Source: Craspedostauros australis (lineage: Eukaryota). From it: a DNA stretch of 64,000 nt. The position numbers were made by a program, and so were the translations under genes. The notes beneath the pieces are model-generated. The model ran no database searches, was not told the origin of the DNA, and saw only the letters and a program-made list of their open reading frames with translations. The DNA lies in contig JALAGF010000963.1 of NCBI GenBank assembly GCA_030167865.1, forward strand, positions 1 to 64,000. Reading direction: 5' to 3'. Shown in pieces: positions 1-42,383 of the stretch. Each line of letters starts with the position of its first letter. Position 1 is the first letter of the stretch.

Positions 1-63
1 CAATGTAATATCTCATAATATTAGCGAACAACATTGATTCACACACTACTCGTCTTATTGACA
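1..63 (+). repeat. 3' part of the 5' LTR (ends ...TTATTGACA)
   Basis: Identical to 5120-5182 and ends in the canonical CA. Confidence 0.95.
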
Positions 64-77
64 GTTGTTCGCTAATA
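64..77 (+). promoter_or_regulatory. Primer-binding site position; complementary to the element's own LTR (candidate self-priming PBS)
   Basis: GTTGTTCGCTAATA starts immediately after the LTR and is the exact reverse complement of TATTAGCGAACAAC at 19-32. It lacks the TGG start of a tRNA-3'-end PBS. Confidence 0.75.
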
Positions 78-131
78 GCCAACGTTTGAAAATCTCGGTC
101 ACCAAGACCAGCATCACCAAAAATCATCACC

Positions 132-1295
132 ATGGCCAACAGCCACGAGAAGATCCTCGCCACCTTTCCACAGGCAGTCGTCGAACCCATCGTCGGGGTA
201 CCCACATACGAGTCCATCGCAGAACTCAATGTAGTCCTCAACGCCAATGCGGCCTCAGTACACTGCCCACTCGGAAACGGCCAGCTTGGATACCTGGTCC
301 TCACCGTCTCCCGAGCGGTATACCAAGAACACTCGGCGACAGCATTCGTCATGCCGGTCAATCCAGGACCGCACCCGAACATCCCGAACGCAGCCACTGC
401 AGCCCAGATCAGCGCTGCCACCAGCATCCACAAGGAACAAGAGCGCCTGTGGCGAGAGTACCGCGCGGTCGACAATGCCCTCAAGCAGCAGCTTCTTGGC
501 GCCATTGAAGACCAATACGTGCGAACTCTCCGGCACAACATTGTCGGATACGCCAACGTCACGACACTCGAGCTTCTGACCCACCTGTACGATACGTACG
601 GCAAGATCTCTCCTCAAGACCTCGACGAAAACGACAAGGCCATGAAGGCACCGTACGATCCAGCGGCACCCTTCGAAGTCCTCGTCGCCCAAATCGAGTC
701 TGCGCGCGATCTTGCGGCCGCCGCCAAAGCGCCATACGCCGATCACCAGCTCGTCACCACGGCATACAACCTGGTGTTCCGAACCCAAGCGTTCCCCGAA
801 GCATGCCGTTCTTTCCGCGCTCTCAGTGCCGCCGACAAGACATGGACTCGCTTCAAGAAGGACTTCGCGGCGGCCCACCAAGACCTGCGCGAAACGCAAG
901 CCACGACGCAAGGCACCAACTTCCAAGGAGCCAATGCGGCAATCACCTCCGCAGAAACAGCGGACGCACTCGCCAACCTCGCATCGGCCACAGCCGCAGA
1001 TCGCAGCACCGTGGCACAGCTCACCAAGAGCAACGCCAACCTCGTCAAGTAACTGTCAGAGATCACAGCGATGGTGTCCCAACTGCGAGCCAACGCAGCC
1101 ACGAGCAGCGGATCCGGAGGCAAGAAGGGAGGGCGCAAGCACAAGCACAACTCCTACTGCTGGACCCACGGGTACAAGGTGGGCATCACGCACACCAGCG
1201 CCACCTACATGAACCCAGCTCCAGGACACCAGAAGGACGCCACTCGCAGCAACACCATGGGGGGATCCACCGAAGGCGCCCCGACGAACGCGTGA
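132..1295 (+). CDS. gag: Retrotransposon Gag, interrupted by an in-frame TAA at 1050-1052
   Basis: ORF 132-1052 continues in the same frame to TGA at 1293-1295. The continuation carries a basic stretch and a zinc-knuckle-like YCWTHG..H.SA.(Y)..PGH motif. Confidence 0.85.
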
Positions 1296-4200
1296 CAAGC
1301 GCGGCAGGATCACAGTAAGCAAGTAGCACTCTCTGTTACTACTTCACCATCCTGTGCTCCTGCCCTCGCCATAGTTGACTCTGGTTGCACTAGTCATTTC
1401 CTGCGACCTGAAGATCCATGCATTGGCCAAACAGCCGACGATAACCCGTTGGCGGTGTCGCTGCCCGACGGGTCCAGCATCCAATCTTCCCACCGAGCCA
1501 CAGTCAGCATTGCCAACGTACCGCAGCACGCTTGCACCGCACGAATTTTTCCGCAGCTTTCCAGCGCGGCGCTTGTGTCGGTGGGGCAACTGTGTGACCA
1601 CGGCATGACAGTCGACTTTGACCAAGAATCCGTGAGAATTCGAAAAAACGGAAACACGATTCACACCGGTTGTCGGCATCAAGTTGACGGCATGTATCGC
1701 ATCGACATCCAACCGCCGAAGCCCACATCGCCAAAAATGGCCAATCACATCCATCACACGTCAACCAAGACGGAGCTGGCCAAATATTACCACCAGTGCT
1801 GCTTCAGCCCCGCGGTATCCACGTTCACGGCAGCCATCAAGAAAGGATTCTTTTCGTCTTGGCCCGGACTGACCGAACAAATGGTGCGAAAGTTCCTTCC
1901 ACCCTCCACCGCTACTGCCGCTGGGCACCTCCGACAACAGTACCAGAACACGCAGTCCACACGCAATCACTGCAACCACGTCACCCAGTCCACCAAGAAT
2001 CCCACGGAACAACGCGAAATCTTCATGGATGTTTATCGGCCAACAGGTAAAATCTTCACCGATCAAACTGGGCGCTTCCCAGTGACGTCAAGCCGTGGAT
2101 ACCAGTACATCATGGTGTTGTACGATCACGACTCCAACGCAATTCTTTCGCGACCGATGCGCAGTCGGCACGCAACGGAACTCACGCGAGCGTGTGACGA
2201 ACTTTTGACGGTTCTCCTTCGAAGCGGAATGACACCGCGATTTCACCGACTCGACAACGAAGCGCCGAAAGAACTCAAGCACCTCATCGAAGCCAAAGGT
2301 ATCCAATACCAGCTTGTGCCGCCAGGCATTCACCGACGCAACGCAGCAGAGAGAGCCATCTCCACTTGGAAAGACCACTTCATCGCAGGACTAGCCACGG
2401 CCGACGAGACATTTCCGCTCCATCTGTGGTGCCAACTACTCCCACAGTGTGACATCACACTCAACCTGCTACGACCGTCACGTGTCAACCCGCACATCTC
2501 AGCACATCACGCGCTCCACGGCAACTTCGACTTCAACGCAACGCCAATGGCACCACCAGGAACGAAGGCAGTCATCCATGACAAACCCAACAAGCGCGCC
2601 ACATGGGCACCACACGGGTCCGCCGGATGGTACATCGCACCAGCACTCGAACACTACCGATGCTACAAGGTGTATTGCAACAAAACACGCAAAGTCCGCG
2701 TCACCGACACCATCGAGTTGATGCCGAGCAAATGCGCGATGCCCACGCCAACCAACGCAGAAATGGCCACCAAGGCGGCCGGCGACCTCGCCGCAGCGCT
2801 CACCAAACCCTGCGCGCCGCTGCAGTCAGTCGGTGACAAGCAGCTGGGAGCACTACAACAGCTCAGCGACATCTTCCAAACGGAGCTCCCAGCGACGCCC
2901 ACCGCACCACTTCCGAGGGTGCCCACAGCGCCACTTCCGAGGGTGCGCACAGAGCCACCTCCGAGGGTGCTCACCACAGCCAGCAGCGGCAACAAACAAA
3001 AACGCGTCACCTTCGCGACACCAACGCGCACACCTCCGAGGGTGCCCCAGGCGACACCACAGGTCACCGACGACGAAGCAGACTCAGAACCCGAATCAGA
3101 CACCGATGACGACGACGACGACGAAAGTACGCAAGCGCCAACCACAACAAGCAACATGACAGCACCGCGCACACGCCTACGCACAGGAACCATCCAACGA
3201 AAGCAATGGACGCGCGGAACCAACACGGCGAACGCGGTCATCGACGAGCGCACAGGCACGGCGTACGAGTACCGCCACCTCATCGCGGGCAAAGTCCACG
3301 GCCACACCCCACAGCAATGGTACACATCATTCGCGAACGAGATCGGACGTCTCGCGCAAGGCATCGGAACCCGCATCCCCGCGTCGGCGGCAACCAACAC
3401 CATCTTCTTCGTCCCAAGGTCGGCAGTACCACGAGATCGCACCATTACATACGGCCGCATCGTCTGCACCGTACGGCCACAAAAGGCAGAAACACATCGC
3501 ACACGCCTCACCGTCGGAGGCAATCTGATCGACTACCCGTTCGACGTCCACACGCCCACCGCAGAACTCACCACCGCAAAATGTTTGTTCAACAGCGTTG
3601 TATCCACCCCAGGAGCCAAGTTCATGACCATCGACATCAAGGATTTTTATCTGAACACCGAAATGGACAGATACGAATACATGCGCATGCCGATGGCAAT
3701 GCTGCCACCAGAGGTCATCGAACAGTACCAGCTACACAAGCTCGAGCACAAAGGCAACGTGTACGTCGAAGTACGCAAGGGAATGTACGGACTACCACAA
3801 GCAGGCAAAATTGCAAATGTGAAGCTCCAAAAACACCTCGCGAAATTCGGATACAGGCCAGTCCCACACACACCAGGATTGTGGAAGCACGACTGCAGAC
3901 CCATCACATTCACTCTCGTCGTCGACGATTTCGGAGTCAAATACGTGGGCAAAGAGCACGCACAGCATCTCATCGGAGCACTGCAAACAATATACAAGTG
4001 CACCATCGAGTGGGACGGAGATCTCTACTGCGGAGTCAGCCTCAAGTGGGACTACGACACAAGAAAAGTAGAGCTATCCATGCCAGGATACGTGAAAAAG
4101 GCACTTCACAAATTCCAACATCCGATCCCCACCAAACCACAGCATGCGCCAGCACCATGTGAAGCGCCAGTCTACGGCGCAAAAACACAGGAACCCAAAC

Positions 4201-5156
4201 TGGAAGACACCGCACCGGAGCTACCAGCAGAGGACATCATATGCATCCGGCAAATAGTAGGAACCCTACTATACTACGCGAGAGCCGTCGACCCAACCAT
4301 CCTTCCCGCAGTCAGCGACATCGCCACTCAACAAGCGCATGCCACGCACAACACAGCGAACCGGGTACGACAGCTACTCGACTACTGCGCCACGCACCCC
4401 AATGCGACCATCATGTACACCGCCAGCGACATGATACTACATGTCGACAGCGACGCATCCTACCTGAGCCTGCCAAAGGCCCGAAGCCGTGCCGGCGGAC
4501 ACATGTACCTCAGCAGCAGATCCCCAACCGACACCAAGGCGCCTGCAACACCACCTCCAAACAACGGTGCCATCCACACGGTCTGCAACAAAATACAGAA
4601 CGTCATGAGCTCGGCGGCCGAGGCCGAAGTGGGAGCACTCTACCTGAACTGCACAGCAGCTTCCGCCCTGCGCACCACGCTAGACGAACTGGGCCACGCC
4701 CAACCACCCACACCCATCAAAACAGACAATTCCACTGCATCCGGCATCGTCAACAACACCATGAAACAGCGGCGCACCAGAGCAATGGACATGCGCTTCT
4801 ACTGGGTGCGCGACCGAATCCAGCAAGGACAATTCATTGTCTACTGGGCCCCCGGAGCAGACAATCTCGCCGACTACTTCACGAAGCATCATCCGACGGC
4901 CCATCACAGAAAAATGAGAGAAGTATACCTCAAGCCTACCCCTGACAGCGGCAAATCAGCAAGACAGAGCATGTTGGGAGTTACGCGAGGGTGTATTGAT
5001 TCCAGTCCCGCACGTGACCCGACTGACCGACGTACGCAAAGTGCGCACCTCGCGCCCACTTTCCTCCTAGAGCAGATCAAGACACTAGCAGGAGCCAAGA
5101 CCGCAACTCCTCAGCTCAGCAATGTAATATCTCATAATATTAGCGAACAACATTGA
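1296..5156 (+). CDS. pol: Retrotransposon Pol (PR-IN-RT-RNase H), in frame with gag after the TGA
   Basis: The frame is open from 1296 (QARQDHSK...ALAIVDSGCTSHF) to TGA at 5154-5156, and all catalytic motifs are visible. The ORF runs about 165 nt into the 3' LTR. Confidence 0.93.
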   Translation, partial: QARQDHSKQVALSVTTSPSCAPALAIVDSGCTSHFLRPEDPCIGQTADDNPLAVSLPDGSSIQSSHRATVSIANVPQHACTARIFPQLSSAALVSVGQLCDHGMTVDFDQESVRIRKNGNTIHTGCRHQVDGMYRIDIQPPKPTSPKMANHIHHTSTKTELAKYYHQCCFSPAVSTFTAAIKKGFFSSWPGLTEQMVRKFLPPSTATAAGHLRQQYQNTQSTRNHCNHVTQSTKNPTEQREIFMDVYRPTGKIFTDQTGRFPVTSSRGYQYIMVLYDHDSNAILSRPMRSRHATELTRACDELLTVLLRSGMTPRFHRLDNEAPKELKHLIEAKGIQYQLVPPGIHRRNAAERAISTWKDHFIAGLATADETFPLHLWCQLLPQCDITLNLLRPSRVNPHISAHHALHGNFDFNATPMAPPGTKAVIHDKPNKRATWAPHGSAGWYIAPALEHYRCYKVYCNKTRKVRVTDTIELMPSKCAMPTPTNAEMATKAAGDLAAALTKPCAPLQSVGDKQLGALQQLSDIFQTELPATPTAPLPRVPTAPLPRVRTEPPPRVLTTASSGNKQKRVTFATPTRTPPRVPQATPQVTDDEADSEPESDTDDDDDDESTQAPTTTSNMTAPRTRLRTGTIQRKQWTRGTNTANAVIDERTGTAYEYRHLIAGKVHGHTPQQWYTSFANEIGRLAQGIGTRIPASAATNTIFFVPRSAVPRDRTITYGRIVCTVRPQKAETHRTRLTVGGNLIDYPFDVHTPTAELTTAKCLFNSVVSTPGAKFMTIDIKDFYLNTEMDRYEYMRMPMAMLPPEVIEQYQLHKLEHKGNVYVEVRKGMYGLPQAGKIANVKLQKHLAKFGYRPVPHTPGLWKHDCRPITFTLVVDDFGVKYVGKEHAQHLIGALQTIYKCTIEWDGDLYCGVSLKWDYDTRKVELSMPGYVKKALHKFQHPIPTKPQHAPAPCEAPVYGAKTQEPKLEDTAPELPAEDIICIRQIVGTLLYYARAVDPTILPAVSDIATQQAHATHNTANRVRQLLDYCATHPNATIMYTASDMILHVDSDASYLSLPKARSRAGGHMYLSSRSPTDTKAPATPPPNNGAIHTVCNKIQNVMSSAAEAEVGALYLNCTAASALRTTLDELGHAQPPTPIKTDNSTASGIVNNTMKQRRTRAMDMRFYWVRDRIQQGQFIVYWAPGADNLADYFTKHHPTAHHRKMREVYLKPTPDSGKSARQSMLGVTRGCIDSSPARDPTDRRTQSAHLAPTFLLEQIKTLAGAKTATPQLSNVISHNISEQH
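2898..2970 (+). repeat. 24-nt tandem repeat encoding PTAPLPRV-type units in the IN-RT linker
   Basis: Three CCAC(T/C)TCCGAGGGTG-containing units at 24-nt spacing, with a fourth partial copy near 3031-3045. Confidence 0.7.
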
Positions 5157-5182
5157 TTCACACACTACTCGTCTTATTGACA
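4992..5182 (+). repeat. 3' LTR (about 191 bp, TG...CA), preceded by a short purine-rich tract
   Basis: TGTATTG follows GCGAGGG at 4985-4991, and the 3' 63 nt match the window start. The 5' boundary is inferred from PPT-TG because the matching part of the 5' LTR lies outside the window. Confidence 0.8.
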
Positions 5183-6661
5183 GCGGCGATCTTCAGCGCA
5201 CTCCTCTGTGGTCTTTCGTTGCGTGCTTCCATACAGACTTTGAATGCAGCCGTGATCCAGATGCAGATTCAGTCCGTATCGAATGACGCTGCGAGTACAG
5301 AGGAGCTGGCAACGCAGACAATCGCACAGGAAGCTACCAATACCAGCATTCAGATACATACTCATGCTCATGCACATATGAATACACAGAAACAGGTGGA
5401 CTTGATCACTGCATCGCCATCATCAGAGATACATGCAACTGAACAGCCTACTGGTCCAATATGGGAAGTGCAACAGATCATGTCCTTTCCACAATTCATG
5501 ACAATGCAAGAGAACGATCCGCACTTTGCGGAGCCCATCAATTCCAACTGCAGTATCGATGACCCCAACGTACCCATCATCTACGAAACGACGGCTTTCG
5601 AAGCAAAATACCTCATGAAAAGCCTTGGAAAGCTCATTCATGGCGACCCGCTCCAAGTATCAAGCACGCCACGTCGCAGCGCAAAGCAAAAGCTCGAGCG
5701 GGTCGTGTGCGCAATCCCATCCGACAGCCAAATGTTACATTTCCCCCATTCTCTGCAACACATCCTTCAATGCTGGTCCTTGTGGAGCCGCTTCCCGGAG
5801 TCGGAACATGTCCTACTGCTCGGACCGCGGCTGAATAGATTCCTCGTCGCGAGCACCCACTTCAGTGCTGGTATATCTCGGATGATGAAGCTCAACAACG
5901 TTGTCTTCCATACCGAACACAGTGATCCCATTCGCTACAAAGAGAACTACGAATCGAATCTAACTCGTTTGCTCATCGTCCAATCGAAAGAGAATAAGTT
6001 CGGATACAAGATAGCCGCGACCAGCGACCTGCAAGACTTCAAGCAAAAGGTCTTGGCATCCGTCTCGATCCATCTCAACGAGACAGTGCACTGTTCCACA
6101 ACCGCTGGCGCACACGATCCAACGTCGCAACTGCCGCCGCGTCCATCCATGGACAACACAACATGGATTGATGCACCGCGCATCGCCATTCTCAATAGAC
6201 GAATGACCAGGCGTCTGCTGGATTCCACCACGATATCGTTGCAGCTGCAGCAACGACTGAGCCTCCCATACAAACCACCCGTCTTTTACTTTGAGACCAT
6301 GTCATTTGCAGAACAGATGGAAGCGCTCACAAACGTTGACATCCTAGTTTCGCCGCACGGCGCGCAGCTATCGGGGGTATTTGCGATGCCGAAATGCGGA
6401 TCGTTGATCGAAGTGTTTCCACACGGATATTACAAACCCAGATTCTTTGGCTCGCTGGCCAAGCTCGCCGGTCTGAACTACGCTTACATCTACCTCGGCG
6501 ATGACATGAGAACCACCATCCACGAGATGAGATTCTTCAAGAATCGTAAAAGAGATCGTGCACAGAATCTATGTACACCCATCGACCGGATCGTGGAAGC
6601 CGCTGTTGTCCAAATTGATCAATGGAGGCAGTGCTGCGGGTTCACGGCAGAGCGACAATGA
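5183..6661 (+). pseudogene. GT61-like (DUF563) glycosyltransferase, copy 1; N-terminus cut off by the retrotransposon insertion
   Basis: Carries DILVSPHGAQL and RIAILNR motifs. The first post-LTR codons AAIFSALLCGLS align to IAIGVSVLLCGLS about 10 aa into the paralog at 7085. No ATG precedes the anchor; the rest of the frame is intact. Confidence 0.75.
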
Positions 6662-7084
6662 CGATTGCAATGTAGAGATCTGCATAGAGTACTCTATTCG
6701 ACTCGTATTCGAATGCGATATTCTTCTGAATTGAAATTAGAAAGCGATACATGGTGATTAGAGAAGGGTAGAAAGAGCTCTGTAGAGAGAGGGAGGGAGA
6801 GAATTCTTGTGCGTCGAGCAATTGCAACACTGCGTTCCTCTCGAAGCTTGTCCTGTTCCAAGTGTTGAGTCCTCCACTCTACACAAGTACAAGTTAAACG
6901 GGAGTCAAACCCGTGACTGGACACTCCATCACAATTCTCACGTCATTCCGCCACCCAATGACACGAAGCGCAACATGGCGCCATCGCATCGTGATACCAT
7001 CCCATCCCATACCGAACTGCACAACCATCATAGGATCTTGAGTTCTTCCCCAGTCGCCATCAAACAGACAGTGCCATACGCACC

Positions 7085-8656
7085 ATGGAAGGTTCCACTA
7101 TTCGATTCAGGATCGCGATCGGCGTTTCTGTGCTGCTATGCGGACTGTCGTTGCATGTTTCCACGAAGGTTGTGGATGACACCATGAGATGGGCACAAGT
7201 TCGAGCCATCTCCGATGAACCTGTGGAGATCACACCAGTGCACATACCGGAGCCTGCGACGACGCAGACACAAGAACATGCGCAAATCCGTGTCCAAGAA
7301 CAGGCAACGGTGGCTTTGATTGCAGAATTGCCAACTCAAATGATGGCCGCAACTGAGCAACCGACCAGTGCAATGCTGGATGTACCAGTGCAGCAGATGA
7401 CTTCCTTCCCGCAATTCATGACGTTACAAGAGGAGGATCTGCAATTCGCGGATCCAAACGGCTCCAAATGCAACATCGCAGATCCGAACCTTCCCTCGAT
7501 CTACACCGCCACGGACTTTCAAATGGAACTGCCTCTGCGGAAACTGTTCGGTCGCGTCCATGGCAATTGGCAAATCAGTCCAACAATGCGAGAGACCAAC
7601 AGCAAGAACTCAACTGCCACAATCGCGTGTGCCATCCCACAAGATAGCAATCTGCTCCATTTCCCTCATGCTCTGCAGCACATCCTGAAATGTTGGTCAC
7701 TGTGGCAACGATTCCAGGGTGCCCAGCATGTCATGATCATGCGACCGCAACACCATAAATTCCTGGTCACGAGCTCGAGCTTCAACTCCGGCATTGCTCA
7801 CATGATGGAGCTCAACAACATCGTTTTCCACACCAATCGCAGCGACCCGGTGCGATACAAAGAGACATACACATCCGACCTGAGCCGGCTGTTCATCGCC
7901 AAGTCGAATGGCAACATGAATTCGTACAACATGTTGACGAAGGATGACCTGCAGGACTTCAAACATAAGGTCCTGGCGTCCATTCCCATCCGTCTCGATC
8001 AGACGGTGCAATGTTCAACATTGGAAACAACAGCAGCAACAGCAGCACCAACAGTATCCACATCCGTGCACACTCGCATGAATACAAGCGACCCGGTATC
8101 TCACGAAGCATCACATCCGTCAATCAACAACACAATACAGCTTGATGAACCACGCATCGCCATTCTCAATAGACGAGGGAGCCGGCGTCTTCTAAATTCC
8201 ACCGCGATATCGTTGCACCTCCAGCATCGGCTGAACCTCCCATACAAACCACCCGTGTTTTACTTCGAGACCATGTCATTTGCAGAACAGATGGAAGCGC
8301 TCACAAACGTTGACATCCTGCTATCGCCACATGGTGCGCAGCTGACTGGGATATTTGCGATGCCGCAATGCGGGTCGCTGATCGAAGTGTTTCCACACGG
8401 ATACTACAGGCCCAAGTTCTTTGGTTCATTGGCGAGTCTTTCCGGTCTCAATCATGCCTACGTCTATCTCGGCAACGATGCATCCGAGGCCATCACCACG
8501 ATGGGTTCCTTCCAGCATCGTGTCAGGGCGCGAGCCGAGAATCTGTGCGCGCCCATCGAACGCATCGTGGAGGCAGTGTTCACACAACTGAATCAGTGGC
8601 GACAGTGCTGCAGGTCCACGCAAGCGCAGCAACAACAGTATGGTAGCACCCTGTGA
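7085..8656 (+). CDS. GT61-like glycosyltransferase, copy 2 (type II membrane protein)
   Basis: 523-aa ORF with an N-terminal hydrophobic anchor, HFPHALQ, RIAILNRR, and DILLSPHGAQL..LIEVFP motifs. Confidence 0.85.
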   Translation: MEGSTIRFRIAIGVSVLLCGLSLHVSTKVVDDTMRWAQVRAISDEPVEITPVHIPEPATTQTQEHAQIRVQEQATVALIAELPTQMMAATEQPTSAMLDVPVQQMTSFPQFMTLQEEDLQFADPNGSKCNIADPNLPSIYTATDFQMELPLRKLFGRVHGNWQISPTMRETNSKNSTATIACAIPQDSNLLHFPHALQHILKCWSLWQRFQGAQHVMIMRPQHHKFLVTSSSFNSGIAHMMELNNIVFHTNRSDPVRYKETYTSDLSRLFIAKSNGNMNSYNMLTKDDLQDFKHKVLASIPIRLDQTVQCSTLETTAATAAPTVSTSVHTRMNTSDPVSHEASHPSINNTIQLDEPRIAILNRRGSRRLLNSTAISLHLQHRLNLPYKPPVFYFETMSFAEQMEALTNVDILLSPHGAQLTGIFAMPQCGSLIEVFPHGYYRPKFFGSLASLSGLNHAYVYLGNDASEAITTMGSFQHRVRARAENLCAPIERIVEAVFTQLNQWRQCCRSTQAQQQQYGSTL

Positions 8657-9198
8657 CCACGAGCAGAGAGAGCTGAATTCCAAATGCCAATGCAGTCACG
8701 AGTGTAGACTACATTCGTGACTCACGATCGTGTCTTTGAATTCGAACCGTTGAATAAAAAACTCCCGCCATCGAAAGAGGAACAATGATGATGCGTTGGA
8801 AGGTGGTTTGATCGTTTCCATCATTTCCGTCACAACAAACATCCAAAAGCATTCCAACATCATCGTTGTCGCCTTTGTGATTGTTGGTGATCAGAGTTGA
8901 TGATCATGCATCCCTGCTGATCCCTTTCCAGTTGCCCAACCCATCGCTGACGCCCCGCACGACTATACAAAGTCCATCGTACATAGTACATACCATACAC
9001 GCTCGCGTCCGTGAGCCTGAGAAAGGAGCGACGCCACTCATCAGGAAGAAACGAACGAGCTCGGACTTTGCACCCTTGGAGTGCTCTCTAGCTTGTCTTG
9101 CCTTCTTTCCATGCGTTACGGACGTGCAGGAAGGTGCTCCCTCGATCATACAAGTGCCAGTCCACAATATCAAGCTGGAACGCCATCCAGGCGGCACC

Positions 9199-10659
9199 AT
9201 GAGGCAACCAACGAGCAGGTTGAAGTCGCCGAGCGCAGTCATTGGACTCCTGTGCGTGATTTCCCTGCTATCTCTGGCCAGAAGTCCGTTGAAAGATGGT
9301 CGGATCTACCAGCCCGGGAAGTTCGAAACCGCATTGGACGACCACTCCTCAAGAGATGGCATCAATGTCACCGCGGAGCCACCCACGGCAACGCCGACGA
9401 TTCAAGCCGTCGAGACAGCCAGCCACGTTTCGCCAAAGCCATTGTCACAGATACCATCGGAGCTCACAGTTGTGGTGCAACAGAACATCTCCTTTCCGCA
9501 ATTCATGACGATGCAAGAATACGATCCAGGGTTGGCCGATCCTCCCAATCCAAATTGCGCCGTTACTGATGCGAGCCTTCCAGGAATCTACAAAGTGTCT
9601 CCCTTTCCCAGAACGTACCGGCTTCACAATATCATCAGATGCGTCTACGGCGATCCGCGCGAACTGTCCAGGCCAATCGCGAAGGGCAGGTTCGGTACGG
9701 TCGCGTGCTCCATACCGCAGCAAGCCAACATGCAGCACTTCCCGCACGCGCTGCAGTACATCCTGCCGTGCTGGTCGCTGTGGCGGCGGTATCCGACCGC
9801 TCAGCATGTCATGGTCATCAAAGCACATGAGTTGAAGTCGATGAATCAGAAATCCAGCTTCAACATGGGCATGGTGAAAGTGTTGACGTTCAACAATATC
9901 ACCATCGATGCAGTTTCAGACAGCGCAAAGCAGTACATTACCGACTACAACGGTGACAAGGACAAGCTGCTCGTCGCCGAGCCGCACGTCACCACGTTGT
10001 ATCGAATATCGCGCGAGGGTCACATGGTGGATTTTGTGCAGAAAAGCATGGCGTGCACCGATATGCAGAGAGACCAAACAACGTACTGCGCTGCGATGCC
10101 TCGTATTGTGAACAGGACGCAGCAACACGAAACGATAGCAGCGCACCGGCAGCAGCATTTGGCAAACCTCACGACACCGCGCATCGCCATTCTCAATCGG
10201 CGCCGCAGCCGGCGTCTGCTGAATTCCACCGCGATATCGCATATCCTGCGAGAACGGCTGCAGCTCCCCTACAAACCACCCGTGTTCTACTTCGAGACCC
10301 TGACGTTCGAAGAACAGGCCGAGGCCTTCGGACACGTCGACATTCTCGTCTCACCGCACGGAGCGCAACTGACCGGCATCTTCTTCATGCCGCAGTGCGG
10401 TTCCGTCGTGGAACTCTTCCCGCGCGGTTACTACAAACCACCGTTCTTTGGATCGTTGGCCGGCATCGCCAATCTACGTCATTCGCACATCTACTTGGGC
10501 ACCAATCTGACGCAGGAAATGGAGGACGGCATGAAATCGTTGAAGACCCGCAACGCCGCGCGCGCTCCGCCGCTATGTGCGCCCGTCGACAAGATCGTCG
10601 AAGCCGTGCAGGCGGAAGTGCAGAACTGGCGGCAATGCTGCGGCGGGTTGATGCGGTGA
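9199..10659 (+). CDS. GT61-like glycosyltransferase, copy 3
   Basis: Likely start MRQPTSR at 9199 followed by an anchor (VIGLLCVISLLSLA). Same HFPHALQ and DILVSPHGAQL motifs as copies 1 and 2. Confidence 0.85.
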   Translation: MRQPTSRLKSPSAVIGLLCVISLLSLARSPLKDGRIYQPGKFETALDDHSSRDGINVTAEPPTATPTIQAVETASHVSPKPLSQIPSELTVVVQQNISFPQFMTMQEYDPGLADPPNPNCAVTDASLPGIYKVSPFPRTYRLHNIIRCVYGDPRELSRPIAKGRFGTVACSIPQQANMQHFPHALQYILPCWSLWRRYPTAQHVMVIKAHELKSMNQKSSFNMGMVKVLTFNNITIDAVSDSAKQYITDYNGDKDKLLVAEPHVTTLYRISREGHMVDFVQKSMACTDMQRDQTTYCAAMPRIVNRTQQHETIAAHRQQHLANLTTPRIAILNRRRSRRLLNSTAISHILRERLQLPYKPPVFYFETLTFEEQAEAFGHVDILVSPHGAQLTGIFFMPQCGSVVELFPRGYYKPPFFGSLAGIANLRHSHIYLGTNLTQEMEDGMKSLKTRNAARAPPLCAPVDKIVEAVQAEVQNWRQCCGGLMR

Positions 10660-11127: not shown

Positions 11128-13926
11128 ATGTTGTGGCGCCCGGTGGTCTGTTTGCAGATTCTGTCGCAACACGCACGGCAACAGCGGCATTGCAGAACAC
11201 CGCTGCGCTCCCTGTCGAACGTTCCTTCGCGAGCGATCCGTTGTGCGCGAACCGGCCGTTGGGCATCGTTCGCTGTGGATCGCAACTTCGCGACTGCAGA
11301 CATGCCGTCCAACGCCAGCGACTTTGCGACCGTCGATCCCGTCCTGCTGGCGAAGGCATGGTACCCCGATGTGCGCGGCGACAGTCAGTCCACGCATGGC
11401 CAAACGACGTACGTCAAGGCCGTGACGCGCTGCATTCAGCTGCTCGAGGATTCTTCGAGCATTCCATTCATCTGTCGCTACCGAACGGATCAGATCCATC
11501 CCTTGACGACGCAGCAGGTCCAGACGGTGTACAAACTCAAGACCAACCATGAGTCGCTGGGCACGATGCGGCACAAGCTGTTCGTCGCGCTCCAGCAGGA
11601 GGACGGGTCGCCGGTCACCAAAAAGACGCGGCTGTCACCGAAGAATGCCAAGCTGTGGCAGCAGATCCAGACCAGCACGTCGAAGGCGCAGCTCGATGAC
11701 TTCTACAAGCCCTACAAACCACCATCGAAGGGTTCCATCCTGGAAAGAATACGCGCCGATCATCCCGATCTCGTGGACAAGGTGGATCGATGGTGGGACG
11801 ACTCGAACGCATCGCATGATTGGAGCAAACTCAAACCGCGCGAGTCCGTCGTCAATCTGATCGGCATCAAGATCGCCCACGAACCGCAGATCAGCGCCGT
11901 GGTGTTCGACGAGACCATGAAGCATTGCAAGGTCAGCACCAAGATCGATTCGGCCAGCACAGCGCCGCAGATCAACACGTACAAGCACTACGATGATTTC
12001 ACCACGCCGCTCAAATGGATCAAACCGCATGAGATCCTCGCCATCCGCCGCGGCGTCGATCAGAAGGTCCTCAAACTGTCCTACGTCATCGATGCCGACA
12101 AGATGGAATCCACGATGCGCTATCATTTGAGGCAGGCCGATGGCGCGCCCAAGTCGTTGGTGCGATGCAACACGCTCCTCGCGGAAGGCATCCATGATGC
12201 CTGGACGCGGTTGTTGCGTCGGCAAGCGACGAGCCGTGCATGGAAGGAGCGTTGCAAGGAGGCGGAGGAACGTGCGATCGAGGTGTTTGCCAACAACCTG
12301 CATCATGCACTGTTGGCGCCGCCGTTATCTCCACCGAGGGCAGTTGTAGCGTTGGATCCTGGTTTCAAAGCCGGCATCAAGTGCGCCATCCTGGATGCTG
12401 TCGGAAAGGTGCATCGGTTGGAGACGATTCAATTCGTTGGTTCCGCGAGTCGGAAACATGCCGCCGTCAAGAAGATCGAAAGTATGATCGCGATGACGAC
12501 TGAGCTGGTCGCGAAAGATATCGCCTCTGGTTCCGACCTCGTTGTTGCGGTCGGCAATGGACATGGCAGCCAAGAATGCCAAGAACTGGTGGATGCCGCG
12601 ATGCAGAACGGTGCATCCTCCATCCCCGTCCACGTTGTAGACGAATCCGGAGCGAGCGTGTGGAGCATCACGCAGGAAGCACAAAGCGATTTCCCCGAGC
12701 ATCAGCCCGCCTCCATCGCCTCCGTGTCCATCGGCCGGCGCCTGCAGAATCCCCTGCAAGAACTCGTCAAGGTCCCACCCAAGAGCTTGGGACTTGGCAT
12801 GTACCAGCATGATCTGACTGAAAAGAAACTGGAGGAGCAGCTGGACATGGTCAGCGTGGATGCCGTCGCGACGGTCGGTGTAGACGTCAACACGTGCAGT
12901 CTGCAAATCCTCCAAAAGGTGCCAGGGTTGAACCGGCTGGCGAAGAAGATCGTGACCGCTCGACCGTTGCGGCGACGGCAGGATTTGCTGGAGGTCTCAG
13001 GTCTGGGCCCCAAGACGTTTGAAAATTGCGCCGGATTCTGTCATGTTGATGGCGATGAACCGCTGGACATGACGCCTGTGCATCCCGAATCGTACATGTT
13101 GGCACGGTGGTTGCTGAAGCGAGAGCAGTGGGAGCTGCAGTCCAACAACGACTACCAACGAGATCTTCCACCACGAAATCAATGGCGGTCTCACTTCCAA
13201 CCGCGCATGGAGCGCGCAGCTGAGAAATTTGGCGTGAGCAAGGACCGTGTCTTCGTTGTCATCGAGCAACTGTTGGATTCCATGAGCAACGTGGATCCGC
13301 GCATCGCTCGCATGGAGGCGGGCGACGGAAGTGCTGCCAAGATCCAAAAGATTGGGAAGACAGATGGATGCAAGCGGTTGGATCCCGATCTGCGTCATTT
13401 GGACAAGTTGGAGAAGGCGGTGCCTCTGCGTGGCATCGTGGGTTCCGTGCGGAACATTGCGGATTTTGGAGTCTTTGTTGATTTCGGCGGCGAAAGCGAT
13501 GGCATGGTGCATACATCGAACCTCGGCCGCGTCCCGATGAACAGCTTGTTGGTCGGTCAGCAGATCGGCGTAGATATCTTGCAGGTGGAGAATGAACGCG
13601 TGGCGTTGGCCTTGCATGGGTTGAACGCAGAGCACAAACCATCGCGCCAGAAGGGAGGAGGCAGGAAAAAGGCGCCGGCGACGAAGAAGAGAGCCGCAAA
13701 GACCGTGGTGAAGAAAGCCTCGGGAACACGCAAGCCAACACTGAAGTCCGCCTCTCGGTCAGCATCGAAGCCCAGGCCACGAGCAAGCGCAAAGACTCAG
13801 AGCAGCAGTACCAGCAAGCCAAAGCGAGGAGGTAGCTCTGCACGCAAAGCACCGGCCAAGAAAAGCAGACCAGCTTCATCGAGCGCGTCAGCCGCGACCA
13901 GCAAGAAGACGAGAACGAGGAAGTGA
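11128..13926 (+). CDS. tex: Tex/SRBD1-family S1 RNA-binding protein (YqgF-like, HhH and S1 domains)
   Basis: Motifs IPFICRYR, DPGFKAGIKCA, GNGHGSQE, VDESGASVWS, SIGRRLQNPLQELVKVPPKSLGLGMYQHD, VGVDVNTCS and S1 GSVRNIADFGVFVD. The start is uncertain (ATG at 11128 or 11302). Confidence 0.92.
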   Translation: MLWRPVVCLQILSQHARQQRHCRTPLRSLSNVPSRAIRCARTGRWASFAVDRNFATADMPSNASDFATVDPVLLAKAWYPDVRGDSQSTHGQTTYVKAVTRCIQLLEDSSSIPFICRYRTDQIHPLTTQQVQTVYKLKTNHESLGTMRHKLFVALQQEDGSPVTKKTRLSPKNAKLWQQIQTSTSKAQLDDFYKPYKPPSKGSILERIRADHPDLVDKVDRWWDDSNASHDWSKLKPRESVVNLIGIKIAHEPQISAVVFDETMKHCKVSTKIDSASTAPQINTYKHYDDFTTPLKWIKPHEILAIRRGVDQKVLKLSYVIDADKMESTMRYHLRQADGAPKSLVRCNTLLAEGIHDAWTRLLRRQATSRAWKERCKEAEERAIEVFANNLHHALLAPPLSPPRAVVALDPGFKAGIKCAILDAVGKVHRLETIQFVGSASRKHAAVKKIESMIAMTTELVAKDIASGSDLVVAVGNGHGSQECQELVDAAMQNGASSIPVHVVDESGASVWSITQEAQSDFPEHQPASIASVSIGRRLQNPLQELVKVPPKSLGLGMYQHDLTEKKLEEQLDMVSVDAVATVGVDVNTCSLQILQKVPGLNRLAKKIVTARPLRRRQDLLEVSGLGPKTFENCAGFCHVDGDEPLDMTPVHPESYMLARWLLKREQWELQSNNDYQRDLPPRNQWRSHFQPRMERAAEKFGVSKDRVFVVIEQLLDSMSNVDPRIARMEAGDGSAAKIQKIGKTDGCKRLDPDLRHLDKLEKAVPLRGIVGSVRNIADFGVFVDFGGESDGMVHTSNLGRVPMNSLLVGQQIGVDILQVENERVALALHGLNAEHKPSRQKGGGRKKAPATKKRAAKTVVKKASGTRKPTLKSASRSASKPRPRASAKTQSSSTSKPKRGGSSARKAPAKKSRPASSSASAATSKKTRTRK

Positions 13927-25195: not shown

Positions 25196-28100
25196 TTAGG
25201 TGATGACGGTTGGCTCCTCGGTGCCGATGAACTCCTTCATGCCCGACAGGTCCAGTGCCACTCGGCAGAGCTCGGACAAGGCTTCCGAGGCGACGGCGTC
25301 GATCTTCTCGGCCTCGTACTGCTCAATGTACATTCGCACGGTGGCGCCAGATCCGGCGGTACCCGAAAGGCGGAAGATGATGCGGGATCCGTCCTCCATG
25401 AGGAAGCGGATGCCCTTGTTCTTGGCGATGGAACCATCGACTGGGTCGACGTAGGTGAAGTCGTCGGACTTGGAGATGGTGTACTTGCCGACGGTCTTGC
25501 CGGTGTTGGCTGGGATGTCGCCGCGCATCTTGTCCATCATCTTGTTGGCACCCTCCTTGGAGACGCCCTCGAAGTCCCATCGGCAGTAGTAGTTGCGACC
25601 GTACTTCTTCCAGTGCTTGGTCACGACGTCTTCGACGGTGACGAGAGGAGCGGATGGGTCGGTGTTGACGGATGCGAGGATGGACAACCAGGCCAAGACT
25701 GCCCAGAGACCGTCCTTTTCGCGGATGTGGTCGGATCCGGTTCCGAAGCTCTCCTCTCCACAAATGAAAGGAGTGTAGTCGGTGTCACCGTACAGGGCCT
25801 TGGAATCCATGAGGTTTCCGAAGTACTTCCATCCGGTGGGTGTCTCGAAGAGGGCGAAGTTCATGTCCTTGGCGACGAGATCGACGGCGCCGCTGGTTGG
25901 CATGGATCGGGCAACGCCCTTGAGTCCTCCCTGGCTGCGGAAGAATGGGATGGCGTTGGAGTACGCCGCGATGACGGCGAGGGAGTCGGATGGGCTGACG
26001 AAGAACTTGGATCCGAGGATCATGTTGCGGTCACCATCACCATCGGCGGCGGCTCCGAAGGCTGGAACGGCCTTGTCACCGGTGTCGATGGACATGCCCT
26101 TGCGGTCCAATCCCATGATCTCGACGAGCTCCTTGGCGTACGTGAGGTTGGGGTCGGCGTGTCCGCCGTTGAAGTCATCCTTTGGTGTCGCGTTCAGGCA
26201 GACGCTCTCTGGCTGTCCGAGGATGTCCACGAAGCACTTCTTGGCGTATGGTCCGTTGACTCCGTGCATGCAGTCGTAGATCATGGAGAAGTCTGGGCGG
26301 TCCAGGAGAGCCTTGATGGCTGGGAAGTCGAAGGCGGTCTTCAGGAGGTCGAGCTGAGTCTCGGTGGAGGAGATGACCTCGACGGTGATCTCATCGCTGC
26401 CATCGGCGGCCTTGACGGTGGTGGATCCCAGCTTGTTGATGTCGATTTCTGGGAAGTCCTTGCAGATCTTGTACTTCTTGATGGTGGTGGTATTGGCGTA
26501 CATCTGGTTGGTGGTGGCATCGGTGGCTGGGCCTCCGTTCTCGCAGTTGTACTTGATTCTGTGATGTGTCGAGGAGTGGCAGCGACAACAATATCATGCA
26601 ATGATACAATGATGATGACATGGCAAAAGGGATGGAATGTGAGTGCGGGATGGGATGGCGCAACGCAGAGAAACGAAAGCGCGTATAATTTCCGGAAACG
26701 CAGCCACCGAGTAGGGCATGGACAATTCCATGCAATGCAATTCAATGTATCAGCAATCGCAGCAATAATCACTCACCCGAAGTCTTCCTCTGGACCACCT
26801 GGGTTGTGGCTGGCGGTGAGGATGAAGGCACCGTACGCCTTCTGCCACACTGGTCCGCGCTCGCGGATGATGGAGGACACGGCCGGTGTGCTGAGCAGAC
26901 CGTTCTCGCCGATCCAGAATCGCTTGACGCCGTTGGCAACACCCATGCGCATGATGGTCTGGATGGCCTTATCGTTGAAATAGCGTCCGTCACCGCCGAT
27001 GAGGAGGGATCCCTCGGACAGGTTGGTACCGCCCTCGCGGATGGCATCGAAGGCCGACTGGACGAAGTTCTCGAGGTAGTTCTCGCTCATGAACTCCTTG
27101 GTCTTCTTGCGCAGACCCGAGGTGCCTGGCTTCTGTCCGTCGATTGGCTTGGTCTCGACGGTGGTGGCCTTGAGTGGGCCGAGTCCTGTGGCGGCGGTGA
27201 GATCGAGATCTCCGGTGACCTCACCGGCTGGGATGAGCTTGGTCTCGTCGCTGGTGTTGACGACGGAGACCTCGCCGACAAACTTGGTCTGACGCGTCAT
27301 GCGAATGAGTCCCTTGACGGTGAGCTTCTTGCAACCGACGAGGGATGGGATGCCGCCGGCAGTGGCCTCCTCGAGGGCGGCGACGAGCTTGTACTTCTTG
27401 CTGTCGAGGCTGATGATTGGGGCCTTTCCGCCGCAGGCTGGGTTGAGAACCGGCTTGTTGTTCTCCATGATGTATGCGTCGCTGCGCAACAAGAGGAGGT
27501 CGTTGCACTTCTTGACTGGCGCGAATCGTGTGCGTGGCACGACGATGGCGGTGGATCCTGGGAAGCACTCGATGGCAGCGCCCATGGCGGTCTCGAGCTG
27601 GATGACCTTCTGCGAGGTGTCGTCCTTTGGATCGACGGTCTTCTTGTTCTTTATCATTGGGAGCGGGATGAAGCCTCCGTTCTTGTCGATGATCTCCTTG
27701 AGCTTGTCAAGGCGGATCCAGAGGTTGTTGGTGTTGAAAAAGCGGTGCTTGCTGATGTCCTGGAAGGCGGCCTCGTCTTCGTCGGCGCACATGGCGGATT
27801 CGCGAAGGATGAGCTGGTTGTCGGACTTGCGAAGGGCGAGGTGGCCTCCCTTCTTGTCGTTCTCCGTGCGCTCGCAGCACTCCATGCAGAATGGTGCGTC
27901 GGACTTGGCAAAGTAGCTGAGGATGCCGAGGTCCAGGGAAGCTCCGAGGTTATCGGAGTTGGAGACGAACATGTACTTGAATCCCTTGGCGAGGAGTTCA
28001 TCGAGACGTCCGGATCCGACGAGGGCGGCGTAGAGGTCGCCGTGTCCTGGTGGGCACCACTCGTTGGAAGCATCGGATTTGGAGGTGGCTGGCTCGAGGG

Positions 28101-29238
28101 TCTCGGCGTCGATCTTGGGCACCTTGTTCTGCATCATCTCGAGTCCCTCCTCGGCGGCGAGCGCTGGGTAGTTGTCCTGGAAGAACTTCAGGGTGTCGGC
28201 GCTGGTGGAGAAGGAATTCATGAGCATGAACTTGACATTGGACTTGTACTCCTCTCGCATGGCAATGACCTGCTTGGCTGTGAGGTCAAGGAATGTGTCG
28301 TTTCCCTTGATGGTGAGGAGGGACTTGGCCTTGTCGAGTCCCATGCCGGTTCCCAAACCTCCGTTGAGCTTGAGCACGACGGTTGTGGAAAGGAGAGAGG
28401 TGTCAACCTCATCTCCGGCGAAGCTCTCCGCCTTGACGAGATCCGGGGAAGGGATGATGGTGTCCTCTGGGATGAGACCAGTATTTCCGGACACCAGCGA
28501 ATTGAATGTGGATTCGAAGGCGGAGATGGCCGATTGGGCGATGCCCTCGGACTCCATTTTGGTCTGCGCATATGTATGCATTTGATTGTGGGATTGTTTG
28601 ATGTTTGGTCGGCGAGGCATGATTCCGTCGTTGCATTGTATGGCATTGCATTCCATGCATGAATAGTGTTGCATCACATGGATTTCGAAAGTTGAATTGG
28701 CACGGTATCGTTCCCATTATTGTCAGTTGGGTGGTTCATTTTGTTTTCGCAGATGGAGTCGCGGTCGGCAATGGCGCGGAATCCAGTTCCAAGTCAAGTG
28801 ATGCACCGAAGTGTGTCAGATTCATTTGCGAATCCGATTCATTGTGACGCCATGAAGCGATGGCCGCCAACAGATGAAGATGCGAACGAATCGCAGAAAA
28901 ATGCAAATGAAGTGGACGGCGACCAATTGTTGCATGAAGGCAATAGGCGAAGGAGAAAGGATTGAAAGTCGTGTGAGGATGCCATTAGGTGAAAGAAGGT
29001 GAAATGGATGCAGCCACCCCTGTTCGTTTGGGAGGCAGTTGTCGTCTGCTGATGAGGATGCAGACCTGTCGAAGGTGTTGCGGTCTTTTCAATATTCAGC
29101 CACAACCATTTGACTTGTTGCGCATTGCACTCTGCTGAGGTTGAGGAAGCTGCGATGGCCCCATACATGTTTGCATACACGCAGAGCTGGATCCAAAGTC
29201 ATGTCCACACTTACGCGGCAAGGTTCGAAGGACGGCAT
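25196..29238 (-). CDS. UGP/PGM: Fused UDP-glucose pyrophosphorylase / phosphoglucomutase; exons 29238-29215, 28563-26777 and 26558-25196
   Basis: UGPase motifs LKLNGGLGTGMGLDKAKS, WCPPGHGD, SNSDNL and RFAPVK are followed in the same ORF by PGM motifs QKPGTSGLRKK, ASHNPGG, DGDGDR and CGEESFG. GT-AG introns restore MPSFEPCR|TKME and DFG|IKYN. Confidence 0.96.
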
Positions 29239-41780: not shown

Positions 41781-41852
41781 GTCTCCTTGGTCTAGAGGTA
41801 TGATTTCTGCTTTGGGTGCAGAAGGTCCCGGGTTCGATTCCCGGAGGGGACC
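41781..41852 (+). tRNA. trnP-TGG: tRNA-Pro (anticodon TGG)
   Basis: Acceptor stem GTCTCCT/AGGGGAC, anticodon arm TCTGC-TTTGGGT-GCAGA, T-arm CCGGG-TTCGATT-CCCGG, and a TTTT Pol III terminator just downstream. Confidence 0.96.
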
Positions 41853-42383
41853 CTCTTTTGTCAGTTTTGTTGGGTCTCAACAACGGCGTTGCATTCCTCA
41901 ACTCCCCCATAGCAACCCATGGGCACAACCACTGCAGATCTTAACAGTGTCGGAACCTTGGCGGTTGCTGTCTCCACTTTTGCTATCGCGCGAGAGGACT
42001 ACCTATGTGCACCTTCAATGAGTGTTTAGTATCATATTTTATGCTGCAATCACGTCTCTGTTGAGGATCACAGCCTCCTCCTTGTCGTCCCATTCTCGTA
42101 TCAGACATCATCGCTCCCGGATCCTTTTGCTGTCCTCTTGGCTTCTTCGCTCTTCCTGGGATAGCACTATGGGTTCATCGTCGTTTTCTGGGTTGGCCTC
42201 ATCACGTGATGCAGTTGCAGAGCAAAGATCGTTGATGAGTACGGGTATGGCATGGATCTCGTATCCGCAGGATTTTGCTGTGCTCCATATTGGTAGAGGG
42301 CGAGGACACCTTTCCATCGTGTATGTAACTCAATCCTCGTTTTGGAGACTTGGAAGCGCCGTGAGTTCTGTGTGAGATTACCT

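Follow-up and report, generated by a model that had tools for sequence, protein, structure and literature searches.

Almost all LTR retroelements need a host tRNA to begin reverse transcription. To our knowledge, self-priming has been shown experimentally only in fission-yeast elements of the gypsy type and has been predicted for a few other groups, and Tf1 is the only case known to us that has been studied by experiment. The primer of Tf1 consists of the very first 11 nt of its RNA. The element analysed here lies at the start of a 64,000-nt stretch of DNA (the whole stretch is hereafter referred to as the window) and carries a hairpin formed by a segment of its LTR (arm 1) and a candidate primer binding site (PBS) downstream from the LTR (arm 2). 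These arms are 9–14 nt long in the clade to which the element belongs, versus 11 nt in Tf1, and, unlike in Tf1, a few unpaired bases probably precede the primer.

Self-priming is a described mechanism in Tf1, and it has been put forward for Tj1 and further gypsy elements of the Tf1/sushi group (PMC4600332, PMC5006619). The window element resembles Tf1, Tf2 and Tj1 in that the PBS after the 5′ LTR complements a stretch of the LTR, with a fold-back across U5 and without a tRNA site (PMC4600332, PMC5006619). The placement is also similar, the complementary stretch being near the RNA 5′ end in those elements and near a 5′ end predicted from a sequence motif in ours, and, as in Tj1, an in-frame stop separates gag and pol (PMC4600332). 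However, the window element does not belong to the Tf1/sushi family, the members of which are Ty3/gypsy elements with the order PR, RT, RH, IN, because its own order is PR, IN, RT, RH, with an RT whose Pfam match, just under the cut-off, is to RVT_2.

In plants, Neumann et al. (2019) predicted self-priming for 12% of the elements, including the whole Ty1/copia TAR lineage, for two members of which, Houba and Osr-1, there had been earlier proposals (PMC6317226). As in TAR, where the prediction was made from sequence alone, the window element combines the copia order with at least 10 bp after the 5′ LTR that complement the LTR (PMC6317226). Self-priming by copia elements is therefore not new in principle, since it has already been predicted for TAR. 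Unlike TAR, a lineage of land plants, the window element has a pol with a weak RVT_2 match and yields no Pfam match for gag or integrase; the weak profile argues for a distance from typical plant copia elements.

Donnart et al. (2017) grouped the CoDi elements with Ty and GalEa in copia "branch 1" (PMC5445492). GalEa, like the window element, has no tRNA PBS and has a hairpin at the PBS position; the site described there is palindromic, spans 9 bp with the final A of the LTR among them, and pairs downstream, with no LTR complement found (PMC5445492). In contrast, arm 2 of the window is not palindromic and has its partner inside the LTR, and the element is thus not of the GalEa type. The CoDi elements, as described by Maumus et al. 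(2009), have LTRs of 153 bp upward and total lengths of 5182 bp or more, carry at most one stop where gag meets pol, and are widespread in ocean metagenomes (PMC2806351). The window clade fits these traits (copia order, short LTRs, length, stop and ocean metagenomes) and is likened to CoDi on the basis of this description. The terms tRNA, primer binding site, self-priming and PPT do not occur in the main text of PMC2806351, and none of the main texts covered by a search of the full-text literature describes self-priming for a diatom or CoDi element.

Organization of the element and its surroundings

The coordinates of the element, its hairpin and neighbouring genes are given in Table 1. A single reading frame extends from an ATG at position 132 to position 5156 and contains two in-frame stops, the TGA that ends gag and a premature TAA at 1050–1052, corresponding to codon 307. 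Gag gave no match in the Pfam scan of the window element. The translation of pol comprises a DSG-type protease, an integrase-like region, a reverse transcriptase and an RNase H, and the position of IN upstream of RT and RH is that of the Ty1/copia superfamily. The match of pol to Pfam RVT_2, the copia-type RT, covers residues 731–940 (E 5e-7, 30 bits, under the cut-off of 31.6); upstream of it, residues 420–471 match an integrase SH3-like profile weakly (E 0.0075, also under the cut-off). No Pfam integrase match above the cut-off was obtained for the integrase core, which was recognised by eye in the translation. PF07727 is present in many close homologues of the window RT–RH. The domain order agrees with the assignment to copia made in a preliminary description of this DNA. 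Between the integrase and RT regions, at 2892–3057, there are four imperfect repeats spaced by 24 nt, encoding proline-rich units of the PLPRV type.

Because of the premature stop in gag, the window copy may be unable to move by itself. Despite this stop, the comparable LTR pieces of the element are identical at 64 of 64 positions, and the copy is young, though its own Gag is unlikely to be made. No second copy of the element and no solo LTR was found elsewhere in the 64,000-nt window.

Directly after the element, at 5261–10659, there are three tandem paralogous ORFs of 466, 523 and 486 aa with repeat blocks that are 66–86% identical; a domain scan of the first ORF only identified a Glyco_transf_61 domain. 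Long intron-free ORFs are found throughout the window. A UDPGP–PGM fusion, such as the one listed in Table 1, is a diatom or stramenopile trait.

Table 1. Features of the window (64,000 nt), with coordinates, strand and remarks.
Feature	Position	Strand	Remarks
Ty1/copia-order LTR retrotransposon	1..5183	+	One element, 5′ LTR incomplete at window start
5′ LTR, last 63 nt	1..63	+	CA terminus at 62–63; from repeat with 3′ copy and 3′-flank comparison
CTCATAA, initiator-like motif	12..18	+	Predicted start ~15–16
Arm 1, TATTAGCGAACAAC, candidate self-primer in LTR	19..32	+	3′ end (32) pairs with 64; covaries with arm 2
Loop, 31 nt, putatively the rest of R and U5	33..63	+	Would enter minus-strand strong-stop DNA
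Arm 2, GTTGTTCGCTAATA, candidate primer binding site	64..77	+	First base after LTR
gag	132..1295	+	Ends at in-frame TGA 1293–1295, gag/pol divider
pol, order PR, IN, RT, RH	1296..5156	+	Translation; open frame enters 3′ LTR
RT	~3486–4115	+	Within pol
Polypurine tract, GCGAGGGTG	4985..4993	+	Adjoins 3′ LTR start
3′ LTR, ~190 nt	~4994 (or 4992)..5182	+	Start placed by homology
Arm 1 copy in 3′ LTR	5138..5151	+	Following flank without complementarity
Tex-like protein	11128–13926	+	
UDP-glucose pyrophosphorylase fused to phosphoglucomutase N-domain	26773–28674	-	ORF and domain scan
tRNA-Pro(TGG)	41781–41853	+	

Relatives of the element

A protein search with the RT–RH region yielded 2094 proteins at E ≤ 0.001 among 8000 scored candidates, nearly all of them derived from metagenomes, and the best of them was 76% identical. 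Metagenome contigs were scanned with an alignment of 40 pol sequences (A1), giving 574 confirmed stretches among 602 pattern matches; the best 80 of these 574 stretches, with 37–62% identity in the best segment, are referred to as L001–L080. In the viral contig collection, no relatives were recovered either with a single protein or with the alignment as the query.

In the window element and the 12 relatives named below, gag and pol are in the same frame with a single in-frame stop between them. The first in-frame stop was located at codon 361–441, at the end of gag, in 12 of the 14 relatives read (L042, L004, L002, L044, L007, L024, L069, L058, L019, L025, L033 and L073), often after a conserved NTMGGS motif. 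This arrangement suggests that the gag/pol stop is passed by read-through, as in Tj1 and gammaretroviruses, and not by frameshifting.

LTR boundaries and polypurine tract

The repeat search of the window identified a direct repeat, 1–64 and 5120–5183, with 100% identity. Since this repeat begins at window base 1, the 5′ LTR is cut by the window start. A comparison with the 3′ flank showed that the G at 64 and 5183 agrees by chance between arm 2 and this flank and lies outside the LTR. In relatives with two LTRs, the LTR starts directly after a conserved purine tract ending in GAGGGTG, the first bases being TGTT in L044 and L007 and TGCT in L025, and L044 has CTCCT on both sides, corresponding to a 5-bp target duplication. 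In an LTR of about 190 nt, arm 1 is thus preceded by about 145 nt of LTR sequence and followed by 31 nt. The LTR end at 63, with arm 2 beginning at the next base, stands as given in the preliminary description, but the 64-nt repeat is only part of the LTR, the full length being about 190 nt by homology.

In an alignment of the 3′ region of the window element and five relatives (A4), the block GCGAGGGTGT, consisting of the purine tract and the LTR start, is near-invariant, with variation in one of the 10 columns (L053 has GCAAGGGTGT), and in L044, L007 and L025 it is found ahead of the LTR. The same block codes for the C-terminal residues RGC, which are nearly invariant in the protein alignment. 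As the pol frame is open across 4985–5156, a single stretch thus codes for protein, primes the plus strand and forms the end of the LTR.

Identical contig ends (55, 77, 99 and 127 nt) were also considered as LTRs and rejected for most loci, since these ends fall in coding sequence. We read the contigs of ~5.2–5.8 kb with identical coding ends (L028, L036, L064, L069, L073 and others) as wrap-around assemblies in which the LTRs have collapsed, and the 64-nt LTR piece at base 1 of the window may have a similar assembly origin.

The hairpin in the window and in relatives

An inverted-repeat search recovered the two arms as perfect reverse complements (14 nt, 100%, 31 nt apart), as previously noticed for this DNA. 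In a search of the window allowing up to two mismatches, the 14-mer was found only at 19–32 (+), 64–77 (−) and 5138–5151 (+); the chance expectation was 0.12 matches, and three matches were obtained in 0 of 100 shuffles. In the RNA fold of positions 13–131, the minimum-energy structure and the centroid structure each contain the 14-bp stem (z value of −4.24), and no shuffled sequence out of 200 reached this stability. The absence of a TGG-type tRNA site, also remarked upon earlier, extends beyond the window: there is no TGG in 64–82, and none of the 47 arm 2 sequences described below begins with TGG. The tRNA-Pro of the window, the single tRNA compared, has a longest match of 4 nt to the PBS.

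In the window element and the 80 relatives (81 sequences), a scan for stems without mismatches, 10 nt or longer and enclosing loops of 15–70 nt, yielded 69. The usual form is a C-A-T-A/T-A motif, a gap of 0–3 nt, an arm of 10–14 nt, a loop ending in CA or TA, and the exact reverse complement of the arm. A stem with an upstream CAT[AT]A and a loop ending in CA or TA was present on the sense strand of 39 of the 81 sequences, and the same filter retained none of the 71 stems on the opposite strand and none of the 10 stems in shuffled sequences. We also used a test independent of the motif, for which 44 relatives could be evaluated, namely those loci among the best 80 of the 574 stretches in which the gag N-terminus is present together with 200 nt or more of upstream sequence. 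In 36 of these 44, the 400 nt before gag contain a perfect stem of 10 nt or longer, versus 4 of 139 coding windows of equal length from these loci and 5 of 220 shuffled versions of the upstream sequence. As for the rest, L029 and L041 have nine perfect pairs only, L003, L013, L033, L054 and L023 have one to three mismatches at the expected place, and L062 has 8 + 5 pairs around a 2-nt bulge. The pairing feature is therefore present in all 44 evaluable relatives, six of which have an imperfect form. In L025, the partner of the arm lies 74 nt upstream and pairs over 12 bp. L003, L013 and L033, which belong to the subfamily nearest to the window element, share a recurrent A opposite C at the fifth or sixth stem pair, their arm 1 reading ...TAACGAC and their arm 2 having a C where a T is expected.

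Covariation of the two arms

Fifty stems of at least 9 nt passed a loose motif filter; three of them (L023, L048 and L051) lie away from the LTR junction and were dropped before the covariation count, leaving 47 canonical hairpins, with arms of 9–14 nt and loops of 19–74 nt. The loop ends in CA in 38 of these hairpins and in TA in nine, and the 8 nt after arm 2 are variable. The 47 hairpins correspond to 37 distinct 10-nt arm pairs, a count that does not depend on alignment because it is anchored on the inner ends of both arms. Within an element, all 10 positions of arm 1 pair with arm 2 in 34 of the arm pairs and 9 of 10 do so in three, versus a mean of 4.62 of 10 when arm 1 of one element is set against arm 2 of another. 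At the nine inner stem positions all pairs are Watson–Crick, and three elements lack a pair at the tenth. Each of stem positions 1–4 and 6–10 has three or four pair types, and position 5 has two.

A covariance model (R1) built from 12 hairpins (A2) gave 33 matches at E ≤ 1, all on the sense strand, which constitute alignment A3. In A3, whose 33 rows are fitted to the structure of the model and include its own 12 seeds, 90.1% of the cells are paired, compared with 55.9% in shuffled alignments (none of 500 was as high), and all 12 pairs have changed on both sides. The covariation score of 0.692 compares with 0.136 for shuffled alignments (0 of 500) and with at most 0.126 when the 3′ partner is slid by 1–3 columns. 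RNAalifold predicted the same 12 pairs on A3. The comparison of related copies proposed in the preliminary description thus finds the pairing of LTR and PBS kept while the arm sequences change, with no complete loss across the 44 relatives. Covariation with 37 differing PBS sequences therefore rules out a conserved tRNA primer.

Position of arm 2 at the LTR edge

The 3′ edge of an LTR is set by the start point of minus-strand synthesis, and whatever acts as the primer must therefore have its end paired with the base at which arm 2 begins. The LTR ends could be fixed independently in four elements with two LTRs and a 3′ flank (the window element, L044, L024 and L025); L007 was left out of this set, since its 3′ LTR runs off the contig. 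Arm 2 begins with the base that follows the LTR in each of the four, and the coincidence with the LTR edge that had been pointed out for the window (base 32 opposite base 64) is thereby found in 4/4 elements. Of the first ten bases downstream of the 5′ LTR, 10 of 10 pair with arm 1 in each of the four, whereas 4, 5, 1 and 1 of the first ten downstream of the 3′ LTR do so in the window element, L044, L024 and L025, respectively. The R1 model likewise scored 40.0 bits at 7–83 versus 20.7 bits at the 3′ LTR of the window, and 65.1 bits at the 5′ site of L024 versus 19.6 bits at its 3′ LTR. In L008 (second copy), L030, L032, L040, L043 and L053, a 3′ LTR with the motif and arm 1 is followed by an unrelated flank. 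As arm 2 changes between elements, no partner other than arm 1 changes along with it.

An initiator-like motif upstream of arm 1

The initiator-like motif proposed earlier for the window (TCATA, 13–17) is part of a conserved C-Y-C-A-T-W-A upstream of arm 1 in the relatives. Five anchored positions of the motif were fixed by the search pattern, and −3, −2 and the following A/T-rich run were not. Across 41 distinct motif contexts, position −3 is C in 34 and −2 is T in 27 and C in 13, while +2 is T in 39, +3 is A or T in all and +4 is A in 40. Arm 1 starts 1–8 nt after the motif A, most commonly 4 nt (18 of 47), and the motif was not found in 3 of the 47 hairpins. TCAH+1W has been proposed by Kadono et al. 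as a diatom initiator-like consensus (PMC4686930), and the CTCATAA of the window fits it; the consensus is from diatoms and the relatives are metagenome contigs. We place the probable transcription start at about position 16, three bases before arm 1, in agreement with the 15–19 suggested in the preliminary description. None of the 41 contexts has a TATA-like box 15–45 nt upstream of the motif, and among the metagenome contigs retrieved there is none with a poly(A) end and none that begins at the motif.

A model for priming and its alternatives

We consider it likely that the PBS at 64–77 is read by the RNA of the element itself, through positions 19–32 in the R region of the LTR, and not by a tRNA, in a Tf1-like form of self-priming. 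The strong support for this proposal, already made for the window in the preliminary description, comes from comparison, that is, from the covariation of the arms and the LTR-edge position in four of four elements. Transcription would start at the conserved CTCATAA motif, at about position 16, and the 5′ end of the RNA would fold back, with 19–32 pairing to 64–77 across the 31-nt loop. The RNase H of the element would then cut after base 32, and the reverse transcriptase would extend the new 3′-OH, opposite base 64, through the loop, that is, through U5 and the rest of R; the LTR would therefore end exactly at 63. After the first strand transfer, plus-strand strong-stop DNA would copy the RNA primer, such that the PBS would be rewritten from arm 1 in each cycle. 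Rewriting of this kind, expected from the general scheme of LTR reverse transcription, would explain why the arms are perfect while drifting freely between elements, and why they are perfectly matched even in the window copy, with its broken gag. The start site, the cut, the pairing within one RNA and the rewriting of the PBS are steps that we infer. Several observations count against the model: the loop is only 19–31 nt long in 10 of the 47 hairpins (19 nt in L006), which is short for U5 plus the R needed for strand transfer; 1–8 unpaired nt would precede arm 1 if transcription starts at the motif; and pairing is imperfect in 6 of the 44 evaluable relatives.

The covariation and the LTR-edge position require only that some RNA bearing arm 1 anneal to arm 2. 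The elements might therefore self-prime otherwise than Tf1 does, with arm 1 coming from a second packaged RNA in trans, from a short transcript of the LTR or from the 3′ copy of R, with or without a cut by RNase H, and arm 1 is indeed also present in the 3′ LTR of every element (seen directly for the window). We regard such an arrangement as unlikely, since the spacing of 19–74 nt and the stable predicted fold-back favour pairing in one RNA, and a polyadenylated 3′ end would provide no paired 3′-OH for the 3′ copy. Tf1, moreover, works within one RNA. By the same token, covariation is proof of the importance of the pairing but not of a role in priming, and the hairpin might be a structural RNA with another role, in packaging, dimerisation or translation control, a different primer being used. 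The conserved hairpin at the PBS position of the fungal GalEa copia elements, the role of which is given as unknown (PMC5445492), offers a parallel. This explanation seems to us even less probable than pairing in trans: the 3′ edge of the LTR, which is set by the start of minus-strand synthesis, coincides with arm 2 in all four testable elements, and there is no other conserved candidate site after the LTR, the 8 nt beyond arm 2 being variable.

Priming by a host tRNA is the usual rule among Ty1/copia elements (PMC6317226), and a whole tRNA or a fragment, as in Drosophila copia or Ty5, could in principle prime at 64–77, with the complement in the LTR being incidental. Nevertheless, the 47 elements have 37 versions of the PBS, each matched by its own LTR and poorly by those of others (the mean of 4.62 of 10 given above), none of the 47 begins with TGG, and the single tRNA compared matches over 4 nt. 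As judged from the sequences compared, covariation comes close to refuting this explanation, and we consider it highly improbable.

Implications for the clade

Returning to priming by the RNA of the element itself, the broader reading of these results, to which we would give a little better than an even chance, is that an abundant copia clade of marine microbes, probably of the diatom CoDi type, has abandoned tRNA primers, each element having a private primer/PBS pair at an initiator-type start that is rewritten in each cycle. A pair rewritten in each cycle would be free to drift, and this would account for the 37 versions. The hairpins follow a simple rule, by which the 5′ ends of these elements can be marked: an initiator-like motif, an arm of 9–14 nt, a loop of 19–74 nt ending in CA or TA, and the complementary arm. 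Annotation pipelines that seek primer sites of the tRNA type will miss such elements or set their boundaries wrongly. The 37 primer/PBS versions constitute a large natural set of compensatory changes, and the mechanism could be tested in a second superfamily and in transformable algae.

If this reading is correct, the window clade would be the first self-priming copia clade outside land plants. The question of whether hairpin priming came before tRNA priming has been raised previously (PMC3601003), and the clade bears on it: taken together with TAR and Tf1/sushi, it would show that priming by a hairpin either dates back to the ancestor of LTR elements or arose more than once. Elements of this type would also be blind to defences acting through tRNA-derived small RNAs.
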